64,000 nucleotides of DNA. Origin: Eledone cirrhosa (Eukaryota). The first letter of the stretch is position 1; each line of letters begins with the position of its first letter. Shown one piece after another: positions 1,838 to 57,750 of the stretch. Under the pieces are notes generated by a model that was given only the letters and a program-made list of their open reading frames with translations, searched no databases and was not told where the DNA came from. The position numbers were made by a program, and so were the translations under genes. The DNA is taken from the NCBI GenBank assembly GCA_964016885.1, contig OZ024742.1, positions 87,358,001 through 87,422,000 of the forward strand, in the 5' to 3' direction.

Positions 1838-1930
<93 letters not shown>
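1838..1930. repeat. (TTA)n microsatellite
   Basis: Direct observation; flanks the 5' end of the Dong-like element. Confidence 0.98.
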
Positions 1931-2790: not shown

Positions 2791-2829
2791 ACTAACCCCC
2801 CCCCCCCTCATATTGGTCAAAATCATCGC

Positions 2830-24140: not shown

Positions 24141-24171
24141 TAATAATAACAACAACAACAGCAACAACAAC

Positions 24172-24228
<57 letters not shown>
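24141..24228. repeat. (TAA/CAA)n tract, left border of the retrotransposon array
   Basis: Direct observation. Confidence 0.97.
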
Positions 24229-24230
<2 letters not shown>

Positions 24231-24617
24231 TTTCTTTATTAACCACAAGGGTTTACATAAAGTAGACATTAAGGACAGTGCAGGACAATGCAGGACGGTA
24301 CAAATGGGCATTTCTGCGTGTAAAAAAACAAAAACAGAGGATGTAACAAAAATAACAATGAAAATAACAATGAAAAATTCCCCAATAGGGGGGAGACTTC
24401 GGAGGGACATTTGTGGAGAAAGCCCAGTAAAAAGCCACAATGACCCTGACCACCAAGGCAAGTGCCCTCTCCCAGTTTTCCACCTTTAGTTTACAGATAT
24501 ATACTCAGAGTCGGCCCATTCACTCGGGCCATTCTTGCTTCTCTCACCCATCTTTCAACAAAATGCTGGGAAGAGAGCACTTCCTTCTCTACTCTGATTT
24601 TCCTTTTCAAATGAAAT
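24229..24617 (-). mobile_element. 5'-truncated (~390 bp) copy of the Tx1-like element
   Basis: Essentially identical to 26862-27252 apart from homopolymer lengths; (TAA)n on both sides. Confidence 0.95.
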
Positions 24618-24631
24618 AATAATAATAAGAG

Positions 24632-24669
24632 TTTCCAGTTAACCAACATCAATGACTGAGATTCAAGGA
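24632..24669 (+). mobile_element. ~38 bp extreme 3' end of the Dong-like element between TAA tracts
   Basis: tttccagttaaccaacatcaatgactgagattcaagga is identical to the terminus at 41270-41307. Confidence 0.9.
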
Positions 24670-24689
24670 ATAACAACAATAATAATAAC

Positions 24690-26784
24690 TGCTTGATGTC
24701 AGGTGAGGTACCAGAGTGGTTGACAAAAGGTACCACAGTTCTGATAATGAAAGACCGAATCAAGAGTAATGGTGTTACCAACTATAGACCTATCACATGT
24801 CTGTCCGTAATGTGGAAACTGTTGACAAGCATTATGTCTGAGGAAATCTACCATCACCTCCACACAAACAACTTGTTACCGGACGAACAGAAAGGGTGCC
24901 GAAAGAAGTCACGTGGTACAACGGACCAATTACTTATTGATAAGTTGGTAATGAGGAATTGCAAGAGGAGACACACTGGTCTTGCCATGGGATGGATATA
25001 CTACAAAAAGGCATTTGACATGGTGCCTCATTCTTGGATCACCAAAAGCCTGGAGATCTTCAAGGTGGCAGATAACATCAGACAGTTGTTGGTCAAAAGT
25101 ATGAAGTCCTGGGAAACAGAGTTAACATCAACTGGACAATCCTTGGGAAGCGTGAATATCAAGAGAGGTATCTTGCAGGGAGATAGTCTGTCCCCTCTGT
25201 TGTTTGTCCTTGTCCTGATGCCCCTGACCAGTGTACTGCGAAAAGTGAGAGCAGGATACAGGTTGGGAAGGGAGGGCTTATCATCAATCACCTCCTCTTA
25301 ATGGACGATCTTAAGCTCTTCGGTAAGAGTGAAAAGGAGTTGGATGTGCTTTTTGACACTGTCCGTATTTTCCGCTATGATATATGTATGCAATTTGGTA
25401 TTAGTAAGTGTAGAGTCATTGTGATGAAGAGGGGTAAGTTGAGCAGAAATAACGGAATCCAGGTACCAACAGGTGAAATGATAAAGGAAATTGACTCTGA
25501 AGAAGGATACAAGTATTTGGGTGTTCTGGAGGCTTATGACATCAAGAACAAACAAATGAAGGGATTGATAAGAACTGAATACATTCGGAGAGCAAGGAGC
25601 GTATTGAAGTGACATCTGAACAGTAGGAATGCCATAAGTGCAGTAAATTCCCGAGCTGTGTCTATTATTAGGTACAGTGCGGGAATTCTGAGATGGAATG
25701 TTGCTGAACAAAAAGAAATGGATAGGATGTCTAGGAAGCTATTGACTATCTACAACATGTTCCACAAGAGGAGTGATGTCGATAGACTCTACTTAAGGAG
25801 ACCTGAAGGTGGAAGAGGTCTTATCAGCATAGAGGACTGTGTTCAGATAGTGAAAAACAACCTACACAAATACGTGACTGATAGTAAGGAGCCAATGCTC
25901 AGAACTGTAGTGAAGGAGGAGACAATAGGCCAGGGGATGTCCAAGGAGGAAATAAGATCAAGGAGAAAGAGCAGCCTTCATGAAAGATCCCTTCATAGTA
26001 CCTTCTTTGAGAAAACTGAATTTAGAGATCCACAGACATGGAACTGGTTGAAAAGAGGAGACCTTAAAAAGATTACAGAAGTGGCTGAAACACCATATTA
26101 GGAAGTGGCTCAAACAAAATATTTACAAGGAGGAGACTTGCACACTGTGTAGGATCTATGGAAAGAGAGTGAAGAGACTGTGGCTCACATTGTATCCCAG
26201 TATAAACACTTTGCCCAGACTCAATATAAAGGCTGGAGACATGATATGATGGGCAGGGTGATCCACTGGCACCTATGCTAAGTAAACAATTTACCATATT
26301 CTGAGAAGTGGTATGAGCATAAGCCAGAGTCGATGATGTAAAACGATCAGATGAAGTTGCTTTGGGATTTTAGGATACAGACGGACAAGAAACTGGAAAT
26401 CAATAGACCTGACCTGGTGGTTTTGGACAAGGAAAAAGATCGTGCCTGATTGTGGATGTGGCCTGCCCATTCGACACGAGAATGCAAGAGAAGGAAAGGG
26501 AGAAAATTAACCGATACCAGGACTTAAAGTGGGAGGTAAAAATGATTTGGAACTGCCATGAGGTCAAAGTGTACCGATTGTCGTAGGCGCACAAGGTACT
26601 ATCTCAAAGAGTTTCCACGGATGGTTAAAGAAAATTGGTCCCGCCCCGCTTTTTCGAACACTTCAAAAGATATGCTTGCTGGGAACAGCAAGAACCCTCC
26701 GATACGTGCTGAATCACTGAGGGTGCAGGTATTCATTTCAATAACCTTTCCAGTTAAATAACATCAATGCCTGAGACTCAAAGA
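24690..26784 (+). mobile_element. 5'-truncated, mutated Dong/R4-like copy
   Basis: ORF pieces 24693..25301, 25301..25612 and 25658..26101 match the RT of the 37840 ORF; same 3' UTR, then (TAA)n. Confidence 0.95.
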
Positions 26785-26798
26785 ACAATAATTATAAT

Positions 26799-26861
<63 letters not shown>

Positions 26862-27125
26862 GATTTCTTTATTAACCACAAGGGTTTACATAAAGTAGAC
26901 ATTAAGGACAGTGCAGGACAATGCAGGACGGTACAAATGGGCATTTCTGCGTGTAAAAAAAACAAAAACAGAGGATGTAACAAAAATAACAATGAAAATA
27001 ACAATGAAAAATTCCCCAATAGGGGGGGAGACTTCGGAGGGACATTTGTGGAGAAAGCCCAGTAAAAAGCCACAATGACCCTGACCACCAAGGCAAGTGC
27101 CCTCTCCCAGTTTTCCACCTTTAGT

Positions 27126-30100
27126 TTACAGATATATACTCAGAGTCGGCCCATTCACTCGGGCCATTCTTGCTTCTCTCACCCATCTTTCAACAAAATG
27201 CTGGGAAGAGAGCACTTCCTTCTCTACTCTGATTTTCCTTTTCAAATGAAATTTGAAAAAGTCAATCAGAGCATCACCGAAGAGGTAAGTGCTCGTCTTC
27301 AGCCCTTTCAAACGTGTCCACCATACTATCTCTTTCGCCATGGCCACCAGACAGATAAAAACTGCCTGCCCTTCCCGGCTAAAGGAGGAGGGCGGGGCAA
27401 TCCTCACGATAGACTCAGATGATAGCTGGATCCGTCCTAAACGCGACAGCAGGTGTTCGACATAAACCCACAAGTCAGCAATTTTCGGACACTGGACGAG
27501 TGCGTGCAGGACGGTTTCGTCGCCCTGCGCGCATCTCGGACATGCCCGGCTGACGGCACCTCCATGCCTGTAGAGTTTATCCCGAACTGGCAAGGCTCCT
27601 CGGTAGCACTGCCAGGCCAGAGATTTCTGGAAGTTGTCCATAGGCCCTGGCCCGAAAGTTCTTCCGAAGAGATTGGCTAGTTGATTTTCGTCGACGCCTA
27701 GAGTTTCCCCAAGTACGTCGTCGCTCTTCCCCTCCACTAATCCTCTATAGAACGCCGAGGTGGAGTTTCCACCGATCACATTGCCCGATTGGTCGAGGGC
27801 TGTGAGCGCCTGAAGACATTCCAGTCTCCAGGCGCTCCCTCTCGGTCTTCGCTTGACCCAGGACTGCAGCTCCGTCAAGGAAACGAGCTGGGGAAAAACG
27901 CGTCTAGCAAACGGCGACCACACCTGATCACCGTCGAGGAAGAGGTGGAGATGTCGTAGCCTGAGCGCGTGCCTGCGCATCATCAGCCACGGCATGCCCA
28001 GCCCTCCACGTAGCGGGTGTTGACAACAGATGGACCGCCTGACCATCGGAGCACGTCCCATCCACAAAAAGCGAAATAGCAAACGCTCCAGCGCAGTCAG
28101 GCGAGGCTTAGGACAAGGTACGACGGTTAGGCGGTAGCAGATGACAGACGCGATGTACGCGTTAGCCACCTCCGCTCGACCTTTCAGGGATAGCTTCCTC
28201 TCCGCCCATTTCTGGGTGAGAGAAGCCACCCTGCTCGTCACCTCGTCCCAGTTTTTGTCCGTCTGGAGGTCCGGACCGAACCAGACCCCTAGCAATTTAA
28301 CCGGTCCGTCCGTCCAGCGCCCGACGACGCTGTTGGACGGCATGGACCTGCCTCTCCAGGTGCCGAGCTGCAGGCCCACTGACTTTTCCTGGTTGATCAT
28401 TGCTCCTGTCACCGCTTCGTATTCTCTTAGTGTAGTGCCGATCGCCTCGATGTGTTTGGCGTTCGACACCACTACGGTGACATCGTCCGCATATGCTGAC
28501 ACGGATCTTCCGCATCCTAGTTCGCGCGGGACTCTCCTCAACGTCTCCAGTTTGTGCAGTAATGGCTCGAGAGTCAATACGTACAAGAGGGACGAGAGGG
28601 GACATCCTTGGCGGACCGAGCGCATGATGTTGAACGGTTCCGACAGGTGACCGTTCACTCTCACCACAGAGCAGATGTCGCTGTGCATGGCAGCGATCCA
28701 GCCTCTGAAGACGGGCCCAAAGCCAGCCGCCCTCAGGACTGCCGCTAGGTAACGATGGTCGACCCTATCGAAAGCTTTCGACTGATCTAAATTGATCAAG
28801 GACCCACCCGTGCCAGGTTCCCTAGCTACCCTCTCTACGATGTATCGCATGAGGTGGAGGTTGTCGTGGATGGATCTGTCGGGAATGGCGCATGTCTGCG
28901 CCTCTCCCACCAGACCACCAACGACAAGCGCCAACCTCTTTGCTAGCACCTTGGCCAAAATCTTAAACTCTGTGTTTAGCAGAGTTATGGGCCGGAAATT
29001 GTCTATGTTATCCCCCTTGTTCGGATCCTTTCTCAGCAGTGCCACCGCTCCTCGGCTCACAGAACTGGGAATTCTCCCGTTCTGTTGCCAGTTGCAGTAG
29101 ACGTCCGCCAAGAGGCCTCCGAACAAGTCTGGCATCTGTACGTAAAGTTCATAGGGCAGACCATCCAAACCAGGCGATTTACCCCTTGTGCAGCCAGTCA
29201 TTGCCTCCCGTACTTCAGCGGCTGTTATCGGCTTTTCGCAACACTTCGCCTCAGTGGCCGAGAGCCGCGGCAGTCCGTCGAGGTAGACACTAAAGTCCAT
29301 CCCTCTACCCGGCCCCCCGCTGCCCCCGAACAGCTGAGCGAAGTGTCGCTGAAAAGCTTCACACATTTGCCCGGGATCGAGTAGCATGCGCCCGTCGTGG
29401 TCCACCAAAGACCGGATCGTGGCTTTGTTGCCACGACGCGCCTCCGCCACTCGGGCCCATTGAACGGCTTTCGTCCCCTCGTGTCTGAGAGCACGCACCC
29501 TAGCTCTGACAACGCAGCCTTCGTGCTTTGCATTGAAGAATTGGTCAAGGGCCAATTTCGCCGCAAGCACGTCGGTCGCAATGCCTTTGCTAAGCGCCTC
29601 GTCTAATTTTCTAACTAGTTCTCCCTCTGCTCTATTTTTCTCTATTGCTAAAGCCTTACTAAACCTAATCGATTCTATTCTAATCGCTCTTTTCAGAGCA
29701 AACCACCACTTGTTGTTGACGATGGCCCCCGTCAACGCCCGCTTAACTAGTTCGCTAATCCGGTCTCTGTAGGCCTTGCGCGCTGGTAAGGACGCGTTTA
29801 GCTTCCAGTAGCCGGGTCCTCGTCTATGAAGCCTATCTAAGTCAAGCACACAGGTCACGAATTTGTGGTCCGTGTAGCTGACTATCTTGAATTGTGGACA
29901 GCCTATGCTAGACCTATCTATTTCCCTACAAAATACTCTATCTAGATATGATCTGGATGACCCTATGCGGTTTGTCCAAGTCCACATTGGCACATTCGGG
30001 AAATCCAATCGGTACCTGTCAGACAGTTCAAAACGCCTGAGCAGGTTGGTGAGGCTCTTGCACCCTCCACCCCTATCCGCTAATCCCACACAGTCCCAGC

Positions 30101-30545
30101 GTGCATCTAAGATCCCGTTCCAGTCGCCCACTAACACTAAAGAGCGGGACGTTCCAAGAAAGGTCTCCAGACGCCGGAAGAAATCAGGCCGCCCTGCTCC
30201 TGTCGGGGCATAGACGGCCACTAGCCTGAAAGCTTGCCCGTCTCCGCTGGTCACGTCCAGCACCACCAGCTTACCCTCTGGGTCCAGGAAGATGGCCCGT
30301 ATGGCGAGATCCAAACCTCTCCGAAAAAGCACAGCAACTCCTCCACCCGATCCAGGACGGCTGGGAGATGCGTACACATCGTAGCCGCCGAAGATCGGTG
30401 CGAAGGCCCGTGCTTCGGAGATTCTGGTCTCGCTGATGGCCACTACATCTATGTTTAGTGACCTGAGGTCGTTGAGCAGGTGACCCTGCTTCCATGACGA
30501 CCCCAAGCCACGCGCATTTATGCTGCCTATTCTGAGTGAGGTCAT
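27126..30545 (-). CDS. ORF2: APE endonuclease, reverse transcriptase and C-terminal CCHC zinc finger (Tx1/L1-like)
   Basis: GSINARG, AISET, VYAP, GDWN, YLDR, TDH; KSPGLDG, NFRPITLLN, LDQSKAFDRV, VRQGCPLS, YADD; CPRC...ETVLHALVQC; 1139 aa uninterrupted. Confidence 0.97.
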   Translation of the reverse strand: MTSLRIGSINARGLGSSWKQGHLLNDLRSLNIDVVAISETRISEARAFAPIFGGYDVYASPSRPGSGGGVAVLFRRGLDLAIRAIFLDPEGKLVVLDVTSGDGQAFRLVAVYAPTGAGRPDFFRRLETFLGTSRSLVLVGDWNGILDARWDCVGLADRGGGCKSLTNLLRRFELSDRYRLDFPNVPMWTWTNRIGSSRSYLDRVFCREIDRSSIGCPQFKIVSYTDHKFVTCVLDLDRLHRRGPGYWKLNASLPARKAYRDRISELVKRALTGAIVNNKWWFALKRAIRIESIRFSKALAIEKNRAEGELVRKLDEALSKGIATDVLAAKLALDQFFNAKHEGCVVRARVRALRHEGTKAVQWARVAEARRGNKATIRSLVDHDGRMLLDPGQMCEAFQRHFAQLFGGSGGPGRGMDFSVYLDGLPRLSATEAKCCEKPITAAEVREAMTGCTRGKSPGLDGLPYELYVQMPDLFGGLLADVYCNWQQNGRIPSSVSRGAVALLRKDPNKGDNIDNFRPITLLNTEFKILAKVLAKRLALVVGGLVGEAQTCAIPDRSIHDNLHLMRYIVERVAREPGTGGSLINLDQSKAFDRVDHRYLAAVLRAAGFGPVFRGWIAAMHSDICSVVRVNGHLSEPFNIMRSVRQGCPLSSLLYVLTLEPLLHKLETLRRVPRELGCGRSVSAYADDVTVVVSNAKHIEAIGTTLREYEAVTGAMINQEKSVGLQLGTWRGRSMPSNSVVGRWTDGPVKLLGVWFGPDLQTDKNWDEVTSRVASLTQKWAERKLSLKGRAEVANAYIASVICYRLTVVPCPKPRLTALERLLFRFLWMGRAPMVRRSICCQHPLRGGLGMPWLMMRRHALRLRHLHLFLDGDQVWSPFARRVFPQLVSLTELQSWVKRRPRGSAWRLECLQALTALDQSGNVIGGNSTSAFYRGLVEGKSDDVLGETLGVDENQLANLFGRTFGPGPMDNFQKSLAWQCYRGALPVRDKLYRHGGAVSRACPRCAQGDETVLHALVQCPKIADLWVYVEHLLSRLGRIQLSSESIVRIAPPSSFSREGQAVFICLVAMAKEIVWWTRLKGLKTSTYLFGDALIDFFKFHLKRKIRVEKEVLSSQHFVERWVREARMARVNGPTLSIYL

Positions 30546-30580
30546 GTTTAAAATAGAGTGGAAAAGATGGGAAAGACCAC

Positions 30581-32677
30581 TTACCGTACTTTTGGTAGAG
30601 GAGGGATGGTTTTTACATCCCTTTTCACTTGATCGTCTGGTGAAGGGACCGTTGAATCGTCCCTTCGGCTGGTCGTCGGCTCTTCTAAGAGAATGTCTGA
30701 GTATACTCTTCGATTGATGGTTCCTCCTAGGTCCCTGAAATCACCAACTGCGTTGGGGAATTTCGTTTTAATGTTTGTGTATTGTTTCTGTGCTATTTTT
30801 AGCAGTCTTATGTTAGTTGGCGTTTTGATTGGTGCTGGTATTATGTAGTCCTGTTGTGAAATGTCTGTGTGTTCAATTATGTAAGTCATTAGTTTCTTGT
30901 TGTGTGTATTTATTGCCGTGCATTTGTTTTTCTGGGGGTGGGGTGTGGTTCTGCTATTTTCTTGTCGTTGTTGCTGGGTGTGTGTGTTTTGTTGTTGTGT
31001 TTGCGACGTTGGTGCTTGTGGTGGTGGTGTTGAAGGTGTTGTTGGCGGTGGGGTTGTCGCCGGTGGTGATGGTGGTGCTAGTGTGGGTGGTGATGGTGTT
31101 GGTGTTGTTGCTGCTGTGGGTCTCTTTGCAGTAGACTTTACCCTTTTCTCATTTCTTTCCTCCCTTTTCAAAGGCGACGATGCGCTGCTTCTGCGTTTGT
31201 GCCTTCTTACGACCTTTTGCCATCCCTCTCCCACCTCACACTCCATGTCTGATTCTGTGAGGTCGGGGAGGGGTACCAGCTCCACTCTTTCACTTGTTGT
31301 TGTTGGTGATGTTTGCACTGGAGTCTCTGTTGCAGCTGCATTTGGTATTGCTGTTGTTGTTGTTAATATTTCCACTGCTGCTGCTGTTTTTGATTTCCGT
31401 GGCGTGGGTATGGGTGCCACGGACCTATCGTTCCTGGTTGCCGCTTGTCCTGTTGCTGGTAGCCGTGGAGCCGGATTCGGAAGGAGGGGGGTTTTCTCCT
31501 TTCTCAGGGTCTTCTCGTTGCAGAAGGCCCTGAGGTGAGTCTTCGATCCACAGCGAAAGCATTTCGGGCGTTTGCCCTCAACACTTATGGGCAGTTGAGT
31601 GCCGTTATCGAAGTCTATCACATCCGGGATAGCTTCGATGCACTCCTGGTTGGTTTGGATTAGCATCTCAATGGAGGAGCCGACCCAATCTTCTCTTACT
31701 TTTTTCTGTACTTGCAGTACAGTTGTTTTGTCCTCGATTCCGACGAGGACAGACGCGGCCAGCCAAGAAGGGGTCATTCCGGGGGGGACGTGGGTCAGTT
31801 TGACCCTCACAATTTTTTGCCCGCAGTAGGAGGGCACCAACACCATTTCCTCGCTCCTTAGGGTCACTACTGATTGGGCCTTTGCCTCCTGGGGTGTGGC
31901 AAAAAGTACGTCTACGGTGGCATATTTTTTGCCTCGGGTGATGTGCGTTTTCCGCTGCCACACAGACCCCAAGGCTTTTTGTATTTGGGCCTCTGTGGCT
32001 CTTTCCACCCTACGGGATTTTGTACTTACTGTACGGTACGTGACCGTACAGTGCTCTTGGGTCTCGAAAAACTTTTCCGCTGCCTTGCAGATTGCTCGGT
32101 GTCCGTTCTTTGTCACCATCTTCTTCGCTTCCTCTAATTCCTCATTTGTTATGAGGATTGTTTCCAAGTTTTTCGCAATACCTGCAAATGAGATTGGTTT
32201 TTCTCTGCTGTTGTTGTTGTCGTCAGAGCTGCTGGTACTTTTGTTGTTGCTGCAGGTACTACGACTACTGCCTCCGCCGCTGTTGCTGTGGTTGTTGTTG
32301 GTGTTGCTGCTGCTAATGCTGTTGTTGTTTATGCTGCTGGTGATGCTGTTGCGGCTGCTACTGTTGTTTTCATTGTCACTGTTGCTGTTGTTATTACGGC
32401 TGCTACTGCTATTATTCCTGACGTCAGACGAATGAACTGGGTTTTCGTATTTCCCGCACACCTGTTTCGTCGCTGTCGTCGTCGTCGTGGAGAAACCTTG
32501 CACGCTTTGCACGAGACTTTTCTTTTCTTTCGTCGCTTGCGAAAGAGAAGGGAGGGAGAGAGACACATTTAAAGAAGGGAGGGAGAGAGACAATCTTCTC
32601 TCTGCTGTAGTGATGATTGAGGAAGAAGAAGACGGAATGAGTGGGAGTGACGTATGAAATTTCTTTTTCGTAGCCAT
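30581..32677 (-). CDS. ORF1: gag-like RNA-binding protein with one zinc knuckle and long low-complexity tails
   Basis: CFRCGSKTHLRAFC knuckle, ISFAGIA and GWQKVVRR motifs typical of L1/Tx1 ORF1; lies directly upstream of ORF2. Confidence 0.92.
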   Translation of the reverse strand: MATKKKFHTSLPLIPSSSSSIITTAERRLSLSLPSLNVSLSLPSLSQATKEKKSLVQSVQGFSTTTTTATKQVCGKYENPVHSSDVRNNSSSSRNNNSNSDNENNSSSRNSITSSINNNSISSSNTNNNHSNSGGGSSRSTCSNNKSTSSSDDNNNSREKPISFAGIAKNLETILITNEELEEAKKMVTKNGHRAICKAAEKFFETQEHCTVTYRTVSTKSRRVERATEAQIQKALGSVWQRKTHITRGKKYATVDVLFATPQEAKAQSVVTLRSEEMVLVPSYCGQKIVRVKLTHVPPGMTPSWLAASVLVGIEDKTTVLQVQKKVREDWVGSSIEMLIQTNQECIEAIPDVIDFDNGTQLPISVEGKRPKCFRCGSKTHLRAFCNEKTLRKEKTPLLPNPAPRLPATGQAATRNDRSVAPIPTPRKSKTAAAVEILTTTTAIPNAAATETPVQTSPTTTSERVELVPLPDLTESDMECEVGEGWQKVVRRHKRRSSASSPLKREERNEKRVKSTAKRPTAATTPTPSPPTLAPPSPPATTPPPTTPSTPPPQAPTSQTQQQNTHTQQQRQENSRTTPHPQKNKCTAINTHNKKLMTYIIEHTDISQQDYIIPAPIKTPTNIRLLKIAQKQYTNIKTKFPNAVGDFRDLGGTINRRVYSDILLEEPTTSRRDDSTVPSPDDQVKRDVKTIPPLPKVR

Positions 32678-32912
32678 GTTGTTTTTTGTTTAAAATGAAA
32701 TTTTGGGTACAAAACCCCAATAACTGGTTATTTAACCCCGAAGGGCCAAATAACGGACAGAAAGACCCCTCTCACGAGGAGGAGGGTGTCTTTATCAACA
32801 ATTTGGTTCAAGTTTTAAACAATTTACAATTGTTTTAACGGTTAAAAATTACTATACCTTACAGAGCCGAGCCTCCGTCAACCATGGCATTCAATAATAA
32901 TAATAATAATAA

Positions 32913-35900
32913 CCTAACCATACATTCGCCAATCCTCGATAAGAGTGTTTAAATATCGAACCTAAACAGTTCGAATAACGGTGAAATGGAGACTAGAACG
33001 TCATGTGACAGACTCTCACCCAACAGGTGCTCCCTGGCTCAGCAGCAGGAACCTGAGTGTCAAACAAATACTGCTGGTGTTGGAGGAAGAAGAAGAAGGA
33101 AAGGGACCAGAACCAACTGGACGAAAGAATTGAATAGAACTGTTATGCAATGTTACCTGAAAAGTAACCCCAAGGAGGGGGGCTATAGGCGACGGATGCA
33201 TAACATCTGGAACGAGATTGGTCTATTTAAATTAGATGAACAAAAATTGGCCGGGCAGGCTCGGGTAATAAGAACTAATGGGTGGATAAGCGAGCTGGAA
33301 CTGGAGGAACTGAGCAGAGAGAATTGCTTGGAGATGGAGGGTGTAGTATGCCAGTCAAACGAGCCAGTGGGAAATGAAGGTGAAGAGGTCGAGAGAACGG
33401 AGGAACCACCCGAAGCAGACAATGATGTGAATACTGAGATAAATAATACCTGGAACAGAGATACGGCCACTGAGGAGATGAATGCTGACGGGCTAGGACA
33501 AGATTCGGTCGACATCCTAAATTTAGTGGTAGATGAATTGAACAATGATAGTGGGAGACCTATGAACCTCAGATTTGTAGACAGGAAAAAGTTAAAAGAA
33601 ACAACAGCTAGGGTAAACAAAGTCATCCCATACCTTGAGGCGAGGAGCCTTCACCAGTGCAACAATATCCTCAAAGCAACAGCAAATACGGTGAGGAAAC
33701 TACTCGGTATAAAAGCGAGAGGAAACAACAGACAAGAAAGAGCAGAGCCTTGGTGGAAGAAACGACTGAGTGGTCAAATGTAGGAAATGAGAAATTACAT
33801 AGGAAAGCTTGAGTCACTACTGAATGGGACACTAAAAAATATAGGCACTAAATATAGACTGGAAATAAAGGACAAAACTAGGAAGAAAAAGCTAAATATT
33901 ATCATAGAGGAACTGAAGCAACGCATTGTAGCAAAGAGTGCAAAAATCAGGTGATACAAGAACCGGGTCAGTCAGTATAAACAGAACCGCATGTTCGACA
34001 ACAACCAGAAGATGCTGTTTGGACAGCTTGAGGTGAAAGAAAGAGGCAACGACTTGTTCCCTGAGGCGGAACAAACTAAACATTCTGGAGAGGAATATGG
34101 GAGCAGGATGTTAGACATAATGACCAGGCAGGGTGGATTGAGACAGTACAGAGGGAGATCGGTGAGCATGCACACCAACAAACTGATTTGAGTATCACAG
34201 TTGAAACTATTAAGGGGCAGGCCAAAAAACTAACCAACTGGAAATCACCAGGCCCAGATGGTGTGCAGGGGTATTGGATTAAACATGTAACATCCCTCCA
34301 CCCGAGACTGACGGCCATGTTCAATGACTGCTTGGTGTCGGGTGAGGTGCCAGAGTGGTTGACAAAAGGTACCACAGTTCTGATAATGAAAGACCGAATC
34401 AAGGGTAATGATGTTACCAACTATAGACCCATCACATGTCTGTCCGTAATGTGGAAACTGTTGACAAGCATTGAGTCTGAGGAAATCTACCATAACCTCC
34501 ACACAAACAACTTGTTACCGGACGAACAGAAAGGATGCTGAAAGAAGTCACGTGGTACAAAGGACCAGTTACTTAATTATAAGATGGTAATGGGGAATTG
34601 CAGGAGGAGACACACTGATCTTGCCATGGGATGGATAGACTACAGAAAGGCATTTGACATGGTGCCTCATTCTTGGATCACCAAAAGCCTGGAGATCTTC
34701 AAGGTGGCAGATAACATCAGACAGTTGCTGGGCAGGAGTATGGGGTCCTGGGAGACAGAGTTGACATCAACTGGAGAATCCTTGGGAAGCGTGAAGATCA
34801 AGAGAGGTATCTTCCACGGAGATAGCCTGTCCCCTCTGTTGTTTTTCCTTGTCCTGATGCCCTTGACCATTATGCTGCAAAAAGTGAGAGCAGGATACAA
34901 GTTGGGAAAGGGAGAGCTTACCATCAATCACCTCCTCTTCATGGACGATCTTAAGCTCTTCGGGTAGAGTGAGAAGGGGTTGGATGTGCTTGTTGACACT
35001 GTCCGTATTTTTAGCAGTGATATATGTATGCAGTTTGGTATTGTAAGTGTGGAGTCATTGTGATGAGGAGGGGTAGGTTGAAGAGAAGTAACGGAATCCA
35101 GATACCAACATTTGAGATGATAAAGGAAATTGACTCTGAGGAAGGATACAAGTATTTGGGCGTTCTGGAGGCTGATGGCATAAAGAACCAAAAAATGAAG
35201 AAACTGTTAAGAACTGAATACATTCGGAGAGCAAGGAGCGTATTGAAGTGACATCTGAACAGCAGAAATGCCATAAGCGCAGTAAATTCCCGAGTTGTGT
35301 CCATTATTAGGTACAGTGCGGGAATTCTGAGATGGAATGTTGCTGAACAAGAAGAAATGGATAGGAAGACTAGGAAGCTATTGACTATCTACAACATGTT
35401 CCACGAAAGGAGTGATGTCGATAGACTCTACCTAAGGAGATCTGAGGGTGGAAGAGGTCTCATCAGCATAGAGGACTGTGTTCAGATGGAGAAAAACAAC
35501 CTATACAAATACGTGACTGATAGTAAGGAGCCAATGCTCAGAACTGTACTGAAGGAGGGGACAATAGGCCAGGGGATGTCCAAGGAGGAAATAACATCAA
35601 GGAGAAAGAGCAGCCTTCAGGGAAAATCCATTCATAGTACCTTCTTTGAGAAAACTGAATTTAGAGATCCACAGACATGGAAATGGTTGAGAAGAGGAGA
35701 CCTCAAAAAGGCTACAGAAGGAACGTTAATGGCTGCGCAGGAGCAGGCCCTCAAAACGAAGTGGTTGAAACACCATATTTACAAGGAGGAGGCTAGCCCA
35801 CTGTGCAGGATCTGTGGAGAGAGAGAGGAGATTGTGGCTCACATTGTATCCGAGTGTAAACACCTAGCCCAGACCCACTATAAGGACTGGAGACATGATG

Positions 35901-36446
35901 TGATGGGCAGGGTGATCCACTGGCACCTGTGCAAAGTAAACAATTTACCACATTCTGAGAAATGGTATGAGCATAGGCCAGAGGCGGTGATGGAGAACGA
36001 TCAGGTGAAGGTGCTGTGGGATTTTAGGATACAGACGGACAAGAAACTGGAACACAATAGACCTGACCTGGTGGTTGTGGACAAAAAAAAATATCGTGTC
36101 TGATTGTGGATGTGGACTGCCCATTCGACACGAGAGTGCAAGAGAAGGAGAGGGAGAAAATTAACCGATACCAGGAATTAAAGTGGGAGCTAAAAAGGAT
36201 TTGGAAATGCCATGATGTCAAAGTGATCCCGATTGTCATAGGCGCACTGGGGACTATCTCCAAAAGTTTCCAAGTATGGTTAAAGAAAATCGGCCCCTTA
36301 ACGCTTTGGAACGCTTCAAAAGGCATGCTTGCTGGGAACAGCAAGAACCCTCCGATACGTCCTGAATATCTGAGGCTGCAGGTAGTGGCTTGCTATTCAT
36401 TCCAACGGACTTCCCAGTTAACCAACATCAATGACTGAGATTCAAG

Positions 36447-36448
<2 letters not shown>
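32913..36448 (+). mobile_element. Near full-length Dong/R4-like copy disabled by stops and frameshifts
   Basis: Collinear with 37771-41307 (METRTSCDRLSPNR start to the ttcaagga end); (TAA)n on both sides. Confidence 0.96.

Positions 36449-36510
<62 letters not shown>
36449..36510. repeat. (TAA)n tract
   Basis: Direct observation. Confidence 0.98.
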
Positions 36511-36620
36511 TTTTAACATATTTAAATCATTTGTGAAATAACAACTCTTAGTACAAATGCTACGTAAAGCACCCGGCTTGAGCCCCAAAAAAAATTCGGA
36601 CCCAAAATATATTGTTATAA

Positions 36621-37269
36621 GGCTCAAATATTCAAATATTCAACTTTGTATTGTACACTGTATATCCAAAAAAAAATGGCTATAAATGGAAGAAGAAGAA
36701 CCCCCCCCCCCTCCTCTCCTCTGGCTACACTATATAGGACAGCTAAACTCACCAACACCAGAAACTAGATACACCACCCACCCCATCATCTGTGTACACT
36801 AAACACAACAGCATTTTCACCTCCACCGCCACCGCTCACTACGACCATCATTGCCGCCACTATCCCATCACCGCCGCCACCACCCCTTGACTCCTTCACT
36901 GCTGCTGCCACCGCTACAGCACCATCACTACAGTAATACGGCTCAAGTATTCAAATATTCAACTTTGTATTGTACACTGTATATCCAAAAAAAAAAAAAA
37001 ATAAAATGGCTATAAATGGAAGAAGAAGAACCCCCCCCCCTCCTCTCCTCTGGCTACACTATATAGGACAGCTAAACTCACCAACACCAGAAACTAGATA
37101 CACCACCCACCCCATCATCTGTGTACACTAAACACAACAGCATTTTCACCTCCACCGCCACCGCTCACTACGGCCATCATTGCCACCACTATCCCATCAC
37201 CGCGCCACCACCCCCTGACTCCTTCACTGCTGCTGCCACCGCTACAGCACCATCACTACAGTAATACGG
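36621..37269. repeat. Tandem duplication of a ~320-330 bp unit (36621-36939 and 36940-37269)
   Basis: Two near-identical copies from ggctcaa(a/g)tattcaaatattcaac to catcactacagtaatacgg. Confidence 0.95.
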
Positions 37270-37770
37270 TCGCATCACCGCCACCACTGCCTCGGTATCG
37301 ACATCACCACCACCACTGTCTCAGTATCGCCAACGCCGCCAGTCTCTGCTGGCTACCACTTCCACATTATAGAATTCCTTACTACTAACAAAGAGGAAGG
37401 CATCAAAATATATAGATAGACTCAAAAGAAAAAAGAAAAAACAAACAACAAAAGCAGCACAGCAACAACAGTAAAAAACGAGAAAAACAGAGAAAAACAA
37501 AAACAAAAAAAGAAACCCCAAAAACGTAAAGAAAATAAGAATGAAGAGAGAAGCAGGCGGACGGACAGAGAAGAGGGGGGAAAAAGTAAAACTTAAAAAA
37601 CAAAAACTAAGTCAGATATTCGAATACTACATTACAATGAAACTTATGCTTATTCATTTTTGGGGCCCTTTCTGCCCGTGTGTTTGTTTGTTTATGTGTG
37701 TCCGTATACAGCGTGGTGATAATGCCACACAAGGGCCAAGTGGGATGGCGGATCCACAGATGGCTATGTA

Positions 37771-40700
37771 AACATACATTCGCCAATCCTCGATAAGAGT
37801 GTTTAAATATCGAACATAAACAGTTCGAATAACGGTGAAATGGAGACTAGAACGTCATGTGACAGACTCTCACCCAACAGGTGCCCCCTGGCTCAGCAGC
37901 AGGAACCTGACTGTCAACCAAATACTGCTGATGTTGGAGGAAGAAGAAGAAGGAAAGGGGCCAGAACCAACTGGACGAAAGAATTGAATAGAACTGTTAT
38001 GCAATGCTACCTGAAAAGTAACCCCAAGGAGAGGGGCTACAGGAGACGGATGCATAACATCTGGAACGAGATTGGTTTATTTAAATTAGATGAACAAAAA
38101 TTGGCCGGGCAGGCTCGGGTAATAAGAACTAATGGGTGGATAAGCGAGCTGGAACTGGAGGAACTGAGCAGAGAGAATGGCTTGGAGATGGCGGGTGTAG
38201 TATGCCAGACAAGCGAGCCGGCGGGAAATGAAGGTGAGGAGGTCCTGAGAACGGAGGAACCACCCGAAGCAGACAATGATCTGAATACTGAGATAAATAA
38301 TACCTGGAACAGAGAGACGGCCACTGAGGAGATGAATGCTGACGGGCTAGGACAAGATTCGGTTGACATCCTAAATTTAGTGGTAGATGAGTTGAACAAT
38401 GATAGTGGGAGACCTATGAACCTAAGATTTGTAGACAGGAAAAAGTTAAAAGAAACAACAGCTAAGGTAAACAAAGTCATCCCATACCTTGAGGCGAGGA
38501 GTCTTCACCAGTGCAACAATATCCTCAAAGCAACAGCAAATACTGTGAGGAAACTACTTGGTATAAAGGCGAGAGGAAACAACAGACAAGAAAGAGCAGA
38601 GCCGTGGTGGAAGAAGCGACTGAGTGGGCAAATCGGGGAAATGAGAAATGACATAGGAAAGCTTGAGTCACTGCTGAATGGGACACTAAAAAACATAGGC
38701 ACTAAAAATAGACTGGAAATAAAATACAAAACTAGGAGTAAAAAGCTAAATATTATCATAGAGGAATTGAAGCAACGCATTGTAGCAAAGAGTGCCAAAA
38801 TCAGGCGATACGAGAACAGAGTCAGTCAGTATAAACAGAACCGCATGTTCGACAACAACCAGAAGATGCTGTTTGGACAGCTTGAGGGGAAAGAAAGAGG
38901 CAACGACTTGATCCCTGGGGCGGAACAAGCTAAAACATTCTGGAGAGGAATATGGGAGCAGGATGTTAGACACAATGCCCAGGCAGGGTGGATTGAGACA
39001 GTACAGAGGGAGATCGGTGAGCAGGCACAGCAACAGACTGATTTGAGTATCACAGTTGAAACTCTTAAGGGGCAAGCCAAAAAACTAACCAACTGGAAAT
39101 CACCAGGCCCAGATGGTGTGCAGGGGTATTGGATTAAACATTTAACATCCCTCCACCCGAAGCTGACGGCCATGTTCAATGACTGCTTGGTGTCGGGTGA
39201 GGTGCCAGAGTGGTTGACAAAAGGTACCACAGTTCTGATAATGAAAGACCGAATCAAGGGTAATGATGTTACCAACTATAGACCTATCACATGTCTGCCC
39301 GTAATGTGGAAACTGTTGACGAGCATTGTGTCTGAGGAAATCTACCATCACCTCCACACAAACAACTTGTTGCCGGACGAACAGAAAGGATGCCGAAAGA
39401 AGTCACGTGGTACAAAGGACCAGTTGCTTATTGATAAGATGGTAATGGGGAATTGCAGGAGGAGACACACTGATCTTGCCATGGGATGGATAGACTACAG
39501 AAAGGCATTTGACATGGTGCCTCATTCCTGGATCACCAAAAGCCTGGAGATCTTCAGGGTGGCAGATAACATCAGACAGTTGCTGGGCAGGAGTATGGGG
39601 TCCTGGGAGACAGAGTTGACATCAACTGGAGTATCCTTGGGAAGCGTGAAGATCAAGAGAGGTATCTTCCAGGGAGATAGCCTGTCCCCTCTGTTGTTTG
39701 TCCTTGCCCTGATGCCCTTGACCATTATGCTGCGAAAAGTGAGAGCAGGATACAAGTTGGGAAGGGGAGAGCTTACCATCAATCACCTCCTCTTCATGGA
39801 CGATCTTAAGCTCTTCGGGAAAAGTGAGAAGGAGTTGGATGTGCTTGTTGACACTGTCCGTATTTTCAGCAGTGATATATGTATGCAGTTTGGTATTGGT
39901 AAATGTGGAGTCATCGTGATGAGGAGGGGTAGGTTGAGCAGAAGTAACGGGATCCAGATACCAACAGGTGAGATGATAAAGGAAATTGACTCTGAGGAAG
40001 GATACAAGTATTTGGGCGTTCTGGAGGCTGATGGCATAAAGAACAAAAAAATGAAGGAATTGTTAAGAACTGAATACATTCGGAGAGTAAGGAGCGTATT
40101 GAAGTCACATCTGAACAGCAGAAATGCCATAAGCGCAGTAAATTCCCGAGCTGTGTCTATTATTAGGTACAGTGCGGGAATTCTGAGATGGAATGTTGCT
40201 GAACAAAAAGAAATGGATAGGAAGACTAGGAAGCTATTGACTATCTACAACATGTTCCACAAGAGGAGTGATGTCGATAGACTCTACCTAAGGAGATCTG
40301 AGGGTGGAAGAGGTCTTATCAGCATAGAGGACTGTGTTCAGATGGAGAAAAACAACCTATACAAATACGTGACCTATAGTAAGGAGCCAATGCTCAGAGC
40401 TGTACTGAAGGAGGGGACAGTAGGCCAGGGGATACCCAAGGAGGAAATAACATCAAGGAGGAAGAGCAGCCTTAAGGGAAAATCCCTTCATAGTACCTTC
40501 TTTGAGAAAACTGAATTTAGAGATCCACAGACATGGAACTGGTTGAGAAGAGGAGACCTCAAAAAGGCTACAGAAGGAATGCTAATGGCTGCGCAGGAGC
40601 AGGCCCTCAAAACGAAGTGGTTGAAGCACCATATCTACAAGGAGGAGGCTAGCCCACTGTGCAGGATCTGTGGAGAGAGAGAGGAGACTGTGGCTCACAT

Positions 40701-41307
40701 TGTGTCCGAGTGTAAACACCTAGCCCAGACCCACTATAAGGGCTGGAGACACGATGTGATGGGCAGGGTGATCCACTGGCACCTGTGCAAAGTAAACAAT
40801 CTACCACATTCTGAGAAATGGTATGAGCATAGGCCAGAGGCGGTGATGGAGAACAGTCAGGTGAAGGTGCTGTGGGATTTTAGGATACAGACGGACAAAA
40901 AACTGGAACACAATAGACCTGACCTGGTGGTTGTGGACAAAGAAAAAAGATCGTGCCTGATTGTGGATGTGGCCTGCCCGTTCGACACGAGAGTGCAAGA
41001 GAAGGAGAGGGAGAAAATTAACCGATACCAGGACCTAAAGTGGGAGGTGAAAAGGATTTGGAACTGCCATGAAGTCAAAGTGATCCCGATTGTCATAGGC
41101 GCACTGGGGACTATCTCCAAAGGTTTCCAGGGATGGTTAAAGAAAATCGGCCCCTTCACGCTTTTTGGAACGCTTCAAAAGGCATGCTTGCTTGGAACGG
41201 CAAGAACCCTCCGATACGTCCTGAATATCTGAGGCTGCAGGTAGTGGCTTGATATTCAATCCAACGGACTTTCCAGTTAACCAACATCAATGACTGAGAT
41301 TCAAGGA
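37771..41307 (+). mobile_element. Intact Dong/R4-type (RLE clade) non-LTR retrotransposon; the 5' end may extend to 36511
   Basis: Single ORF, 75-nt 3' UTR, TAA-type tract downstream. Confidence 0.96.
37840..41232 (+). CDS. R4/Dong-like polyprotein: N-terminal domain, RT, CCHC finger, PD-(D/E)xK restriction-like endonuclease
   Basis: [70 protein letters not shown]...DVACP...KINRYQDL; 1130 aa. Confidence 0.97.
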   Translation: METRTSCDRLSPNRCPLAQQQEPDCQPNTADVGGRRRRKGARTNWTKELNRTVMQCYLKSNPKERGYRRRMHNIWNEIGLFKLDEQKLAGQARVIRTNGWISELELEELSRENGLEMAGVVCQTSEPAGNEGEEVLRTEEPPEADNDLNTEINNTWNRETATEEMNADGLGQDSVDILNLVVDELNNDSGRPMNLRFVDRKKLKETTAKVNKVIPYLEARSLHQCNNILKATANTVRKLLGIKARGNNRQERAEPWWKKRLSGQIGEMRNDIGKLESLLNGTLKNIGTKNRLEIKYKTRSKKLNIIIEELKQRIVAKSAKIRRYENRVSQYKQNRMFDNNQKMLFGQLEGKERGNDLIPGAEQAKTFWRGIWEQDVRHNAQAGWIETVQREIGEQAQQQTDLSITVETLKGQAKKLTNWKSPGPDGVQGYWIKHLTSLHPKLTAMFNDCLVSGEVPEWLTKGTTVLIMKDRIKGNDVTNYRPITCLPVMWKLLTSIVSEEIYHHLHTNNLLPDEQKGCRKKSRGTKDQLLIDKMVMGNCRRRHTDLAMGWIDYRKAFDMVPHSWITKSLEIFRVADNIRQLLGRSMGSWETELTSTGVSLGSVKIKRGIFQGDSLSPLLFVLALMPLTIMLRKVRAGYKLGRGELTINHLLFMDDLKLFGKSEKELDVLVDTVRIFSSDICMQFGIGKCGVIVMRRGRLSRSNGIQIPTGEMIKEIDSEEGYKYLGVLEADGIKNKKMKELLRTEYIRRVRSVLKSHLNSRNAISAVNSRAVSIIRYSAGILRWNVAEQKEMDRKTRKLLTIYNMFHKRSDVDRLYLRRSEGGRGLISIEDCVQMEKNNLYKYVTYSKEPMLRAVLKEGTVGQGIPKEEITSRRKSSLKGKSLHSTFFEKTEFRDPQTWNWLRRGDLKKATEGMLMAAQEQALKTKWLKHHIYKEEASPLCRICGEREETVAHIVSECKHLAQTHYKGWRHDVMGRVIHWHLCKVNNLPHSEKWYEHRPEAVMENSQVKVLWDFRIQTDKKLEHNRPDLVVVDKEKRSCLIVDVACPFDTRVQEKEREKINRYQDLKWEVKRIWNCHEVKVIPIVIGALGTISKGFQGWLKKIGPFTLFGTLQKACLLGTARTLRYVLNI

Positions 41308-41318
41308 ATAACAATGAC

Positions 41319-41351
<33 letters not shown>

Positions 41352-41352
<1 letters not shown>

Positions 41353-41705
41353 TGATGGACAGGGTGATCCACTGGCACCTAGTAATAGAAAACGATCAGG
41401 TGAAGGTGCTATGGGATTTTAGGATACAGACGGACAAGAAACTGGAACACAATAGGCCTGACCTGGTGGTTTTGCACAATGAAAAAAGATCGTGCCTGAT
41501 TGTAGATGTAGCCTGCCCATTGACACGAGAGTGCAAGAAAATGAGAGGGTGAAAATAGTCAAAGAGTTTCCAAGGATGGTTAAAGAAGATTAGTCCAACT
41601 CAGCTTTTTGTGACACTTCAAAATGCATGCTTGCTGGGAATAGCAAGAACACTCTGATACGTCCTGATTGTCTGCGGCTGCACGTAGCGGCTTGATATGA
41701 ATTTC
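41352..41705 (+). mobile_element. Short, internally deleted 3' fragment of the Dong-like element
   Basis: RVIHWHL^VIENDQVKVLWDFRIQTDKKLEHNRPDL with two internal deletions; AAT repeats on both sides. Confidence 0.9.
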
Positions 41706-41734
41706 AAAAACAATAATAATAACAATGTATCATT

Positions 41735-42288
41735 GGCAGTAGCGGCAGAAGGATGGACACCTTGCTTTGCAGCATAAAGTTACTCGCCTTTATGGTATGA
41801 GTTCAAATTCTGCCATAGTATTTTGTATTTCATCCTTTCGGGGGTCGATAAAATAAAGTACCAGAAATGTATGGAATAATTGCTGGCCTTGTGCCAAAAG
41901 TAGAAACACTTATTTGGATCGGCAGTATCGGTAGAGGGTCGGACGCCATGCTTTGCAGCATAGAGTTACGAGCCTTCACGGTCTGTGCTCAAATCCCGCT
42001 GAGGTAGACTTTGCTTTTCATCGTTACGGGATCGATAAAGTAAAGCACCAGTAGTGTACTGGGATAATAGCTGGCCTCGTGCCAAAAGTAGAAACAATTA
42101 TTATTTGGGACGTGGATTGGTTGTATCGGTAGAAGGTCTGACGCCATGCTTTAAAGCAACGAGTTACAACCCTTTATGATATGAGTATAAAACCCGGTTA
42201 ACTTTGCGTTAAGGGGTCGAGAAAATAAAACACCAGTAATACACTGATATAATTGCTGGCCTTGTGTCATAAGTAGAAACAATTATTT
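41735..42288 (+). mobile_element. Three head-to-tail tRNA-derived SINE copies of ~180-190 bp
   Basis: Each has a B-box-like gagttcaaatt, a core related to tttcatcctttcggggtcgataaaataaagtaccag, and the tail gctggccttgtgccaaaagtagaaaca+ttat. Confidence 0.85.
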
Positions 42289-52804: not shown

Positions 52805-55800
52805 ATGTCTATCTATCTATCTAAGGCGGGTAAAATTCCCCAGATCCATGGACGAGTTCTCTCCAGCGGTCCCTGTCCCCATTATCGCTGCCATGTCCTG
52901 CGTCTCCAACGGACCTGTGTCTGACCTTAGGGCATCAACATACGTTAACCTTGGTCTTCCTCTTCTAGTGTGTCCATGTAGGGGCTCCCAAAAGAGTACT
53001 GAGTGCAATGTCATCTCTGGATGTCGGTGAGCATGTCCAGCTAACCTCAGTCTCCTCTGTGTCACTTTTGAGCTGACTTTTGGGATGCTCCCATACAACT
53101 CTGAGTTTTTCATCCTCAGTGTATACTGATTAATGTTCAGAGCCATCCTCAGCATTCTCTTGTAGCACCCATCCACCATCTGAGTGAGTTTCTTGGTCAG
53201 TGTCCAAGTCTCAGACCCACACAGCAGCACAGACTCCACTACAGCAATGAAGAGGCTGATTTTCAGGTCTCTACGAAGGTCCGATTTCCACACCGATCTC
53301 AAGCTGTGACACGCCGCCCAGGGCTTGCTCTTCCTCTCAACCACATCACCTTCCGTATTCCCAATCTTTGCTCCCAAATACAAGAAGTCCTCAACCAATT
53401 CCTGTGGCTTCCCGCCTACATTAGTGATCCCCTCTGGCTTCTCAACATTCTCTACCAGATATTTTGTTTTAGTCTCATTCATTCTCAGCCCCACACTCAT
53501 CGACACAGTCTCAACCTCCCGCATCAAATCCTCTGCCCCCTTCACTGTATTTGTCACCAAAACTATGTCGTCGGCAAATTCAGCATCCGATACCTTTTTC
53601 GCCCTAACTCTCCTGCTCTGAGCCGGTGCTACAGTAAAGCCAGAGTCCTTGTGTTTCTCCAGTGCAAGGCGCAGACAATAGTCCACTACGATGATAAAAA
53701 GGTTCGGAGCCAATGTATCTCGCTGGAACACTCCAGACAGTATCTCAAAGAACTCTGTCATCCCATCAGGTGTAATGACTTGGGCTTTCGTGTTGGGGTA
53801 TAGCAGTGATATCAGGCCAACTATCTTCTTGGGGATTCCATAAGCCTGTAACATCTTCATCAGGCAGTAACGGTCCACAGAATCAAAGGCCTTCCCAAAG
53901 TCAATGAAAACCATGAACGCAGGAAGGCACTTTGCTCTAGCTCCCTCTAATATCCTCCTCAGCATCAGGATGTGACTGGTAGTTGATCTACCCTCTCTGA
54001 AGCCGTTCTGGTTGTCCCTGAGCCTCTTCTCCATCTCAGTCTGGATCCTGTTAAGCATCATCCTGTTGAGGGTCTTTGCCACAAGTGACGTCAGTGAGAT
54101 CCCCCGGTAGTTGTTGGTGTTAGAGAGATCTCCCTTCTTTGGCACTGCGACGATGTTACTGATCCTCCACTGATTCGGGGCAACTCCTTTCTCCAGTGCC
54201 CCGTTACAGAACCCCAGGATGATATCATCACAATCACACCTCTTCATCACCGCTGATGCCACTCCATGTTCTCCATGAGCCTTGCCCTCCTTGATCCTCT
54301 TCTTGGCTCTCTGAAGCTCCTCTCTGGTGAAGGGCTCTGTCTCAACATCCAGTTCCTCAAACAGCCGCCTGATCTCCCCAGTGCTCTGGGCTGTGGAGGG
54401 TGGCTCTCCTAGTAATGTCCTAAAATGGTCTAGGCATTTCCTCTTCCTATCATCGGGCCCCGTTCCCTGGATCTGACTCGAACACCTTCTCTTCCTCCCT
54501 GTGATCTCGGTGATGATCATCCAGCTCTCCTTACATCCAGATCTGTCAACTGCTCTCTCCACACTTCTGATCTTCTCTATCAGTGCCTTCTCTCTGACCT
54601 CAGTGTAAGCGGTACAGAGCTCTTCCCTCATCACCTCCACAATCTCCATCCTCTCCTCCGTAGCATTAGCATAGCATTGATCCCTGGCAGCTTTCAGGTG
54701 TTCTCTAGCTGCACACACTTTTGGGTTTGCAGAGCTGACGTGCTTCCCTTTGTTCTATTTCCTCGGCACCAGGGTTTCACTTGCTTCCGCCACTGCATTG
54801 GTGAAGTGCCCGTACCTCCTCGTCACACTCTCCTCTGTCCATCCAATCTCTCTCTCCTCTGACTCTCCACACAGAGCACTAAACCTGTTTCTCACTTCCA
54901 CTGTGAACCTCTCCTGTAGCCTATCATCTTCCTTGAAACCTCCCCAGTCATAGATTGTTCTCCGGGGTGAGCTTTGCTCTTTCTTAAGCTCACGCGGTCG
55001 TCACTCATAACAAGCCGGTGGTCACTACCCAGTGTACTGAAATAGCTGTATGGTTTCGTGTTCAGAACACTATTCCGCCACTTTTTCCTCACCAGAATGA
55101 AATCAATCTGAGACTTGGACAGGTGCATATCTGAGATGTAGGTCCACATCTTCCCCGGATTCTTCCTAAACCCTAGGTTGGTCGCCATCAAGTTCGCCTA
55201 CAGCAGGGTGTCTCTCAGTAGTCTTCCATTTCGGTTGGTGTTGTTAAGGAAGTACCAGCAAGGATCTTCACTGCCCTCCTTACTCAGATGTGCATTGAAG
55301 TCCCCCAAAACAAGCAGGATATTGTGTGCCTGAGTAGTGTCGACAGCTCTACACACCTCCTCATGGAACTCTTCCGCTCTCACATCACTGTCCCCCTCGG
55401 TTGGACTATAGGCTGAGATTACTGTCAGTCTTGGGTTTCCATTGAAGGTCACCCTCAACACTCGCGGGGAGATAGGCATTATTTCCCTCACCAACAGATT
55501 GGTTTTTGTACTGAACACAAAACCCACTCCTCCTACTGCAGCATTTGTTGTGTTCTTCACTGCCGATGTAGTGATGAGCTGGCTCTTCTTCCAGATCATC
55601 ACACTCCTCACGGGCTCATCGTGTAGGATCCTGTGTTCTTCGATCGCAAGTATCTGTATACCACTCTCCTCAAACAGATGTCTCAACTCCTCTCTCTTCT
55701 CCAGCGTCCGAATAGTCCTCACATTCAAAGTGCCCATTTTGATGGCTCTTCTGCAGGACAAAACTGCATTCTTTATATTTGTCTCAGAGACAGCTGATCC

Positions 55801-57604: not shown

Positions 57605-57750
57605 ATTAATTGTTTCTACATTTGGCACAAGGCCGGCAATTACTCAGTACATTACTGGTACTTTATTTTATTGATCCTGTAAGGATGAAAGGCAAAGTTA
57701 ACCTCGACAGGATTTGAACTCAGAATGGCAAGGGCTGTAATTCTATGCGT
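57605..57750 (-). mobile_element. tRNA-derived SINE of the same family as the 41735-42288 triplet
   Basis: Reverse complement of the gagttcaaatcc...ctttcatcc...gtaccag...ggccttgtgccaaatgtagaaacaa consensus, with a TTA tail. Confidence 0.8.

Follow-up and report, generated by a model that had tools for sequence, protein, structure and literature searches.

Among LINEs (long interspersed nuclear elements) that insert into simple repeats, Dong targets TAA, Kibi targets TC and Koshi targets TTC (PMC3812793, where Dong is grouped with elements that carry an apurinic/apyrimidinic-type endonuclease, APE). Tx1-clade families of crocodilians occupy (TTCC)n and (TTTC)n, and those of Kibi and Koshi (TC)n and (TTC)n, in each case on the sense strand (PMC4494074). 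Here we describe a 64,000-nucleotide stretch of Eledone cirrhosa (assembly GCA_964016885.1, contig OZ024742.1, positions 87,358,001 to 87,422,000), hereafter the window, in which Dong/R4-type and L1/Tx1-type LINEs share the tracts of one microsatellite, Dong on its TAA strand and Tx1 on its TTA strand. All positions are window positions, and the genome measures 3.0 Gb.

The Dong copies agree with Dong of the R4 clade in Bombyx, Anopheles and Biomphalaria in having a single open reading frame (ORF), a reverse transcriptase (RT), a restriction-like endonuclease (RLE) and (TAA)n on the TAA strand, but differ in that the tracts and one 5' head are common to two families with a likeness of only about 40%. 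The Tx1 copies resemble Kibi, Koshi and the crocodilian families, as they are APE elements of the Tx1 clade in a pyrimidine-rich microsatellite on the sense strand. Unlike Kibi and Koshi, they occupy (TTA)n or the site Y|ATTAT, number in the thousands and have their tract in common with an RLE family; TTC was seen only at the edges of a few composite tracts (three loci).

Both halves of this arrangement have precedents, cross-class convergence in Keno and Utopia and opposite-strand sharing in TRAS and SART. Keno (APE, Tx1) and Utopia (RLE) evolved the same U2 snRNA gene target in parallel (PMC4640811). In that case both elements use one site of a low-copy RNA gene and have their 3' flank in common, whereas the elements described here use opposite strands of a microsatellite that is renewed with each insertion. 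TRAS and SART occupy one simple repeat, the silkworm (TTAGG)n, in different orientations (PMC7265360). Both are telomeric APE elements of the R1 clade, whereas here two nuclease classes are dispersed along the chromosomes. For Octopus vulgaris, Dong-R4 is described as recently active and active L1-Tx1 families are listed (PMC13282606), in an article in which the word 'target' does not occur. No report of a TTA-targeting Tx1 element, or of Dong and Tx1 sharing a target, was found in the literature searched; Repbase Reports lay outside that scope and may hold a prior entry.

Polarity of Dong and Tx1 at shared tracts

The array at 24141-41725 spans 17.6 kb and consists of 7 insertions and 8 TAA tracts, as established by sequence inspection and self-BLAST (Table 1). 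Its five Dong/R4-type RLE copies all lie on the forward strand and its two L1/Tx1-type APE copies both lie on the reverse strand, with one intact copy of each class. A sequence-only reading of the window had counted at least seven insertions separated by TAA tracts, with these strands and an intact member per family, and the counts agree. It had also extended the polarity beyond the array, to a Dong-like copy at 1-1837 that follows (TAA)n on its own strand and a Tx1-like copy at 2830-4045 that ends in (TTA)n. Both tracts are present, as (TAA)30 and as the tract at 4046-4073, and the copies belong to a second Dong family and a separate Tx1 family.

The same polarity was found across the genome, where totals were obtained from exact-pattern counts. 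Flanks were inspected for the first 30 matches of each of four patterns, and longer stretches were fetched for 120 further places. The head of Tx1 subfamily A occurs 1730 times, and 1681 of these heads (97%) are preceded by TTATTATT. The Tx1 tail occurs 10188 times and is followed by (ATT)3 in 7724 cases; for Dong, 4342 exact tails and 1154 exact heads were counted. Full-length Tx1 copies with both ends have an upstream TTA run of at least 8 nt in 56/56 cases and of at least 12 nt in 53/56, while a TTA run of at least 11 nt ends nearby at 75/20000 random positions. Dong heads adjoin a perfect TAA run in 25/30 cases and a TTA run in 0/30. By eye, TAA-type tracts come next to the Dong tail in 30/30 cases and TAA lies on the 5' side of short truncated Dong copies in 12/14. 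Thus TTA stands on both sides of full-length Tx1 copies, and TAA on both sides of Dong copies, full and truncated.

Among 356 distinct tracts, the Tx1 ends are 295 in the TTA sense and 2 in the TAA sense, and the Dong ends are 256 in the TAA sense and 2 in the TTA sense. Neighbouring Dong and Tx1 copies are opposite in 114 cases and parallel in 1. In the four samples of 30, in which a few junctions were counted twice, Dong-Tx1 neighbours were opposite in 34/34 cases and neighbours of the same class were parallel in 42/42. The tabulation of flanks and orientation that the earlier reading had proposed thus gives a TTA 5' flank for 97% of Tx1 heads and a nearly absolute polarity for both families, and not the mostly non-TAA flanks or random orientation that it had named as contrary outcomes. 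Apparent violations of the Tx1 polarity (57) were mostly due to a SINE (short interspersed nuclear element) contained in one of the references, and the SINE was masked for the table of 356 tracts. Two truncated Tx1 copies are preceded by TAA and followed by TTA, so that the polarity of the tract flips across the element, perhaps by inversion or deletion at insertion.

These mixed clusters, in which Tx1 takes the TTA strand and Dong the TAA strand of one microsatellite, very probably result from opposite-strand nicking and serial insertion. The opposite polarity is likely a consequence of opposite-strand nicking by two unrelated nucleases in target-primed reverse transcription, a process in which the nicked strand is the complement of the element's sense strand. 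By this rule, the strand nicked by Tx1 would be the TAA strand. The pyrimidine at -1 points to a T/A or T/G step, which suits the chemistry of APEs such as the L1 endonuclease, and the Tx1 APE would cut at such a T/purine step opposite Y|ATTAT. Its insertion would leave a duplication of about 10-20 bp, and short ATTAT sites would be usable besides (TTA)n. The Dong RLE would nick the TTA strand, copy an RNA that extends into the downstream tract and add a TAA tail. Insertion of Dong, Tx1 or the SINE would leave repeat on both sides, and the clusters would grow serially because each insertion duplicates or adds repeat, so that targets persist. The polarity is then a by-product of strand choice, and neither a host function nor cooperation is necessary.

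The Tx1 target and competing explanations

The Tx1 target is best read as a short Y|ATTAT site, which would be most densely packed in (TTA)n, and not as a long tract. Some Tx1 tails are as short as ATT and are joined directly to non-TTA sequence (three loci), and one imperfect Tx1 site has a 16-bp duplication. The plainest signature is that of an abundant SINE, presumably a tRNA-type SINE of octopus, which is found at 41732-42286, at 57607-57748 and as 70 copies in the loci examined. Informative duplications occur in 29/70 of these copies (control mean 5.7, maximum 12). They have a median length of 15 bp (range 7-30, mostly 13-18), all start with ATTA and have a pyrimidine at -1 in 27/29 cases. 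The polarity of the SINE agrees with that of Tx1 by 39:1. With end anchoring, 14-15 of the 22 nt at its terminus agree with Tx1 tails (0-2/5000 shuffles), compared with 6 for Dong tails. The SINE is likely mobilised by Tx1, a grade that is kept at likely because an unanchored local alignment of the two tails is not significant.

Several observations weigh against the interpretation given so far. The unanchored SINE-Tx1 alignment was equalled in 39-121/2000 shuffles. The polarity table of 356 tracts is blind to ends away from a tract, and the samples, being the first exact matches on a single contig, are biased to young copies. Apparent Tx1 truncation points, which still include internal deletions and mis-walked rows, adjoin a TTA run of at least 8 nt in only 13/32 cases (TTC in 2, TAA in 1). 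The 5' tract of full-length Tx1 heads could be partly derived from the RNA, given their exact ATT|G phase. For Dong, the same truncation-point script gave 11/19, which is an understatement since 8 rows, mostly with identical pure-repeat flanks, were dropped as duplicates.

The rival that survives best turns the last of the Tx1 points into a full explanation. Tx1 would have only a loose AT-rich preference, its RNA with (AUU)n at both ends would bring the tracts, and Dong would target them, so that the polarity would come from Dong alone. Full-length heads that always have a tract in exact phase, while truncated ends have one far less often, are consistent with this, and TAA-type tails are known in other LINEs such as the I element (PMC3747384). 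However, even the truncated Tx1 ends touch TTA far above the 163/20000 random positions with a run of at least 8 nt, and in some Tx1 copies the tail stops at ATT. The SINE duplications show ATTAT in host DNA, and young Tx1 copies lie between older Dong copies in the array. This explanation is therefore improbable.

Recombination or assembly error is less probable still, and we consider it very unlikely that the clusters formed by unequal recombination, tandem duplication or misassembly at repeats rather than by serial insertion. Near-identical tandem units with an identical spacer do exist at two loci, and at the left junction of the array four sequencing runs yielded three short contigs and two reads, none of them spanning. 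Misassembly is nevertheless unlikely because the three long Dong copies are 89-96% alike (they differ by 4-11%) with distinct truncation points, and because junctions of the same kinds are seen again at hundreds of other places in the genome. The two Tx1 copies also have differing flanks. Selection or interference (antisense RNA, promoter clash) in place of strand choice can practically be dismissed: opposite copies in one array would be expected to give antisense transcripts, but the polarity tracks the strand of the repeat and not the chromosome or gene, the neighbouring array is mirror-oriented and the youngest copies already conform.

Strand choice at insertion thus stays the preferred explanation, with the tracts of Dong being both target and tail. 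CAA variants stand beside the Dong end in 26/30 tails, and part of the 3' tract would be an inherited tail from RNA that read into the source tract. The tract of young Tx1 copies is shorter on the 5' side than on the 3' side (24 vs 48 nt, n=19, P=0.001; P=0.05 for all 56), and for Dong the difference is reversed and non-significant (56 vs 36, n=26, P=0.14). Since the addition of a tail explains this asymmetry equally well, no edge-biased insertion is called. The proposal that two lineages converged on one microsatellite and leave targets on both sides is supported, with some corrections. The TAA/TTA tracts are shared on opposite strands, the two classes are Dong and Tx1, and repeat flanks full-length copies of both. 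The Tx1 preference appears to be for a short ATTAT site, the participants are at least two Dong families, at least four Tx1 families and the SINE, and the tracts are partly tail.

Element families and their 5' ends

The intact Dong copy has a single ORF of 1130 aa (37840-41232) with an RT, a CCHC finger and a PD-(D/E)xK nuclease. Its nearest solved relatives are R2 proteins, to which both RT and RLE could be aligned. Assignment to the Dong/R4 clade follows from the single ORF with RT, CCHC finger, RHD and PD-(D/E)xK nuclease but without APE, and from (TAA)n at both ends, in truncated copies too. The 1.26 kb at 36511-37770 are the 5' untranslated region (UTR), of which about 55 nt of the head are missing. 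This UTR contains a 329-bp tandem duplication (36617-37269), which some genomic copies have and others lack. The second Dong family has 35-44% protein identity to the first and the same polarity. A metagenome scan for the flanks of a 42% relative found none.

The full-length Tx1 copy (26862-32892, reverse strand) encodes an ORF1 of 698 aa (32677-30581) with a CCHC knuckle and an ORF2 of 1139 aa (30545-27126) with APE, RT and C-terminal zinc finger (Pfam Exo_endo_phos, RVT_1, zf-RVT). The catalytic motifs of ORF2 are present and its nearest solved structure is human L1 ORF2p (E 2e-52). ORF1 has CX2CX4HX4C at residue 373, and its look-alikes at 0.90-0.93 carry zf-CCHC and RRM families, which provides a lead; Transposase_22 is not among its Pfam matches. 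An RRM with a CCHC knuckle is described for Type I ORF1 (PMC5203782). The element thus has the two ORFs, the APE-RT-zinc finger ORF2 nearest to L1, the Type I ORF1 and the sequence-specific target of the Tx1 clade. Both clade labels rest on domains and target.

Tx1 subfamily B has an ORF2 about 95% identical to that of A with a different ORF1 and 5' UTR (loci L121-L156 and L283-L290), and heads C and D accompany ORF2s of about 60-83% amino acid identity. At least four Tx1 heads were found, all of which start with ATT|G and whose elements end in ATT, with ORF2 identity down to about 60%. Of the 310 loci examined, 22 with Tx1 and 12 with Dong have a stop-free frame of at least 1050 aa. The Tx1 and Dong elements of the array have copies elsewhere in the genome at 99.6-99.8% identity, and both must have moved recently because of these copies and frames. 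Numerous short Tx1 copies start about 380-410 nt from the 3' end (at 24616 in the window and at six further loci), which is possibly a truncation hot spot or a non-autonomous derivative.

The heads of Dong-1, Dong-2 and Tx1 have a common motif near CTCYCGTAAG that is followed by a T-rich run (32830-32892, reverse strand, and three further loci). The alignment of the Dong and Tx1-A heads covers about 65 nt with a score of 33 (0/2000 shuffles) and was the best of 596 windows. Dong-1 and Dong-2, although only about 40% alike, carry nearly the same head. A comparable case is that of ingi and L1Tc, which have a common 77-bp 5' end (PMC4758252). There, too, different LINE families have only a 5' terminal module in common, but here the likeness is weaker, it links an RLE and an APE family, and the module is a candidate only.

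Convergence on host factors is as likely an explanation of the head likeness as a shared promoter module. It is conceivable, though on the whole rather unlikely, that the TAA tracts are a niche which renews itself and is common to RLE and APE LINEs, with a 5' promoter module being traded between the two classes, the four Tx1 families exchanging heads among related ORF2s and a Tx1-driven SINE seeding new ATT tracts for all. Bombyx Dong has a hepatitis delta virus (HDV)-like ribozyme at its 5' end (PMC3774820). At the Dong head described here none was found, either with Rfam or with our own descriptor, which lacked a positive control. The Rfam matches at the heads did not exceed chance, and the z-scores of head folding range from -1.0 to +1.4. 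The Tx1-A head gave one match to the HDV descriptor, but this match is rich in wobble pairs, its loop is non-canonical, and we make no claim for it.

The array, its surroundings and significance

The features of the array and the related copies in the window are listed in Table 1. Judged by sequence identity, insertion probably began with the old Dong pieces (about 80-90%) and went on with the 95.7% Dong copy, while the intact Dong and both Tx1 copies would be the latest arrivals.

Table 1. Tracts and element copies of the array at 24141-41725 and related copies in the window
Feature	Positions	Strand	Remarks
Second-family Dong copy (1-1837) behind (TAA)30	1-1934	-	Right end of a separate mixed array
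Divergent Tx1-like copy	2379-4073	+	3' part forward, (TTA)n at 4046-4073; 5' piece 2379-2783 inverted
CAA/TAA tract, left edge	24141-24228		Likely the original host microsatellite
Tx1-family 3' fragment, 388 bp	24229-24616	-	99.5% identity to full Tx1; own-strand TTA tract on both sides
(TAA)4 between Tx1 and Dong fragments	24617-24628		Length would be compatible with a target duplication
Dong 3' end, 41 bp	24629-24669	+	Self-BLAST
TAA/CAA tract	24670-24687		Dong tail and target
Dong copy, 5'-truncated, with stops	24688-26784	+	89.7% identity to intact Dong
TAA tract	26785-26861		Tail-to-tail Dong/Tx1 junction
Full-length Tx1-type LINE, without poly(A)	26862-32892	-	
TAA tract, 20 nt ((TAA)6)	32893-32912		Head-to-head Tx1/Dong junction
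Dong copy, 5' UTR-truncated, ORF with stops	32913-36447	+	95.7% identity to intact Dong
(TAA)20 between two Dong copies	36448-36510		
Near-full Dong/R4-type LINE, open 1130-aa ORF	36511-41306	+	
TAA tract with CAA/TGA variants	41307-41352		Dong tail and target
Old Dong 3' fragment, internally deleted	41353-41709	+	
Short AAT tract, right edge	41710-41725		
Three old tandem SINE copies	41732-42286	+	Tail resembles Tx1 tail

The array is typical, being one of many mixed clusters. An unselected region of 224 kb (the window with 100 kb to the left and 60 kb to the right) has an element in 33/35 TAA tracts of at least 18 nt, and these 33 tracts make up about 6 clusters. At least five further TAA-based clusters were noted in this region (L221-L236). 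The neighbouring mixed array measures about 24.6 kb, ends at 1837 and reaches about 23 kb to the left of the window. Its Dong-1, Dong-2 and Tx1 pieces number at least a dozen, and their orientation mirrors that of the array described here. The divergent Tx1-like copy at 2379-4073 has about 50% amino acid identity and belongs to a different family.

A broken APE-RT LINE at 52817-55989 (reverse strand), which we take to be RTE-like, adjoins (TA)n and is outside TAA. RT fragments at 8862-10362 (reverse strand) and at L224:1805-3970 look Penelope-like, and the latter has a weak GIY-YIG match. The earlier placement of the array inside an intron stays a conjecture. To the right lie two sushi-domain exons, both bounded by clean splice sites and separated by about 25 kb (60028-60222, forward strand, and L233:1063-1317), and no exon was found to the left in the 45 + 90 candidate frames scanned (the 90 picked from 231).

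These results add (TTA)n to the series of Tx1 targets and unite cross-class convergence with the opposite-strand sharing of a repeat in one system. Since both families have many near-identical open copies, a single simple substrate serves to compare how an APE and an RLE choose their strand. The clusters show a large genome absorbing thousands of LINE copies into existing clusters, and they bear on TAA microsatellite markers, assembly and short-read insertion calling in these animals.

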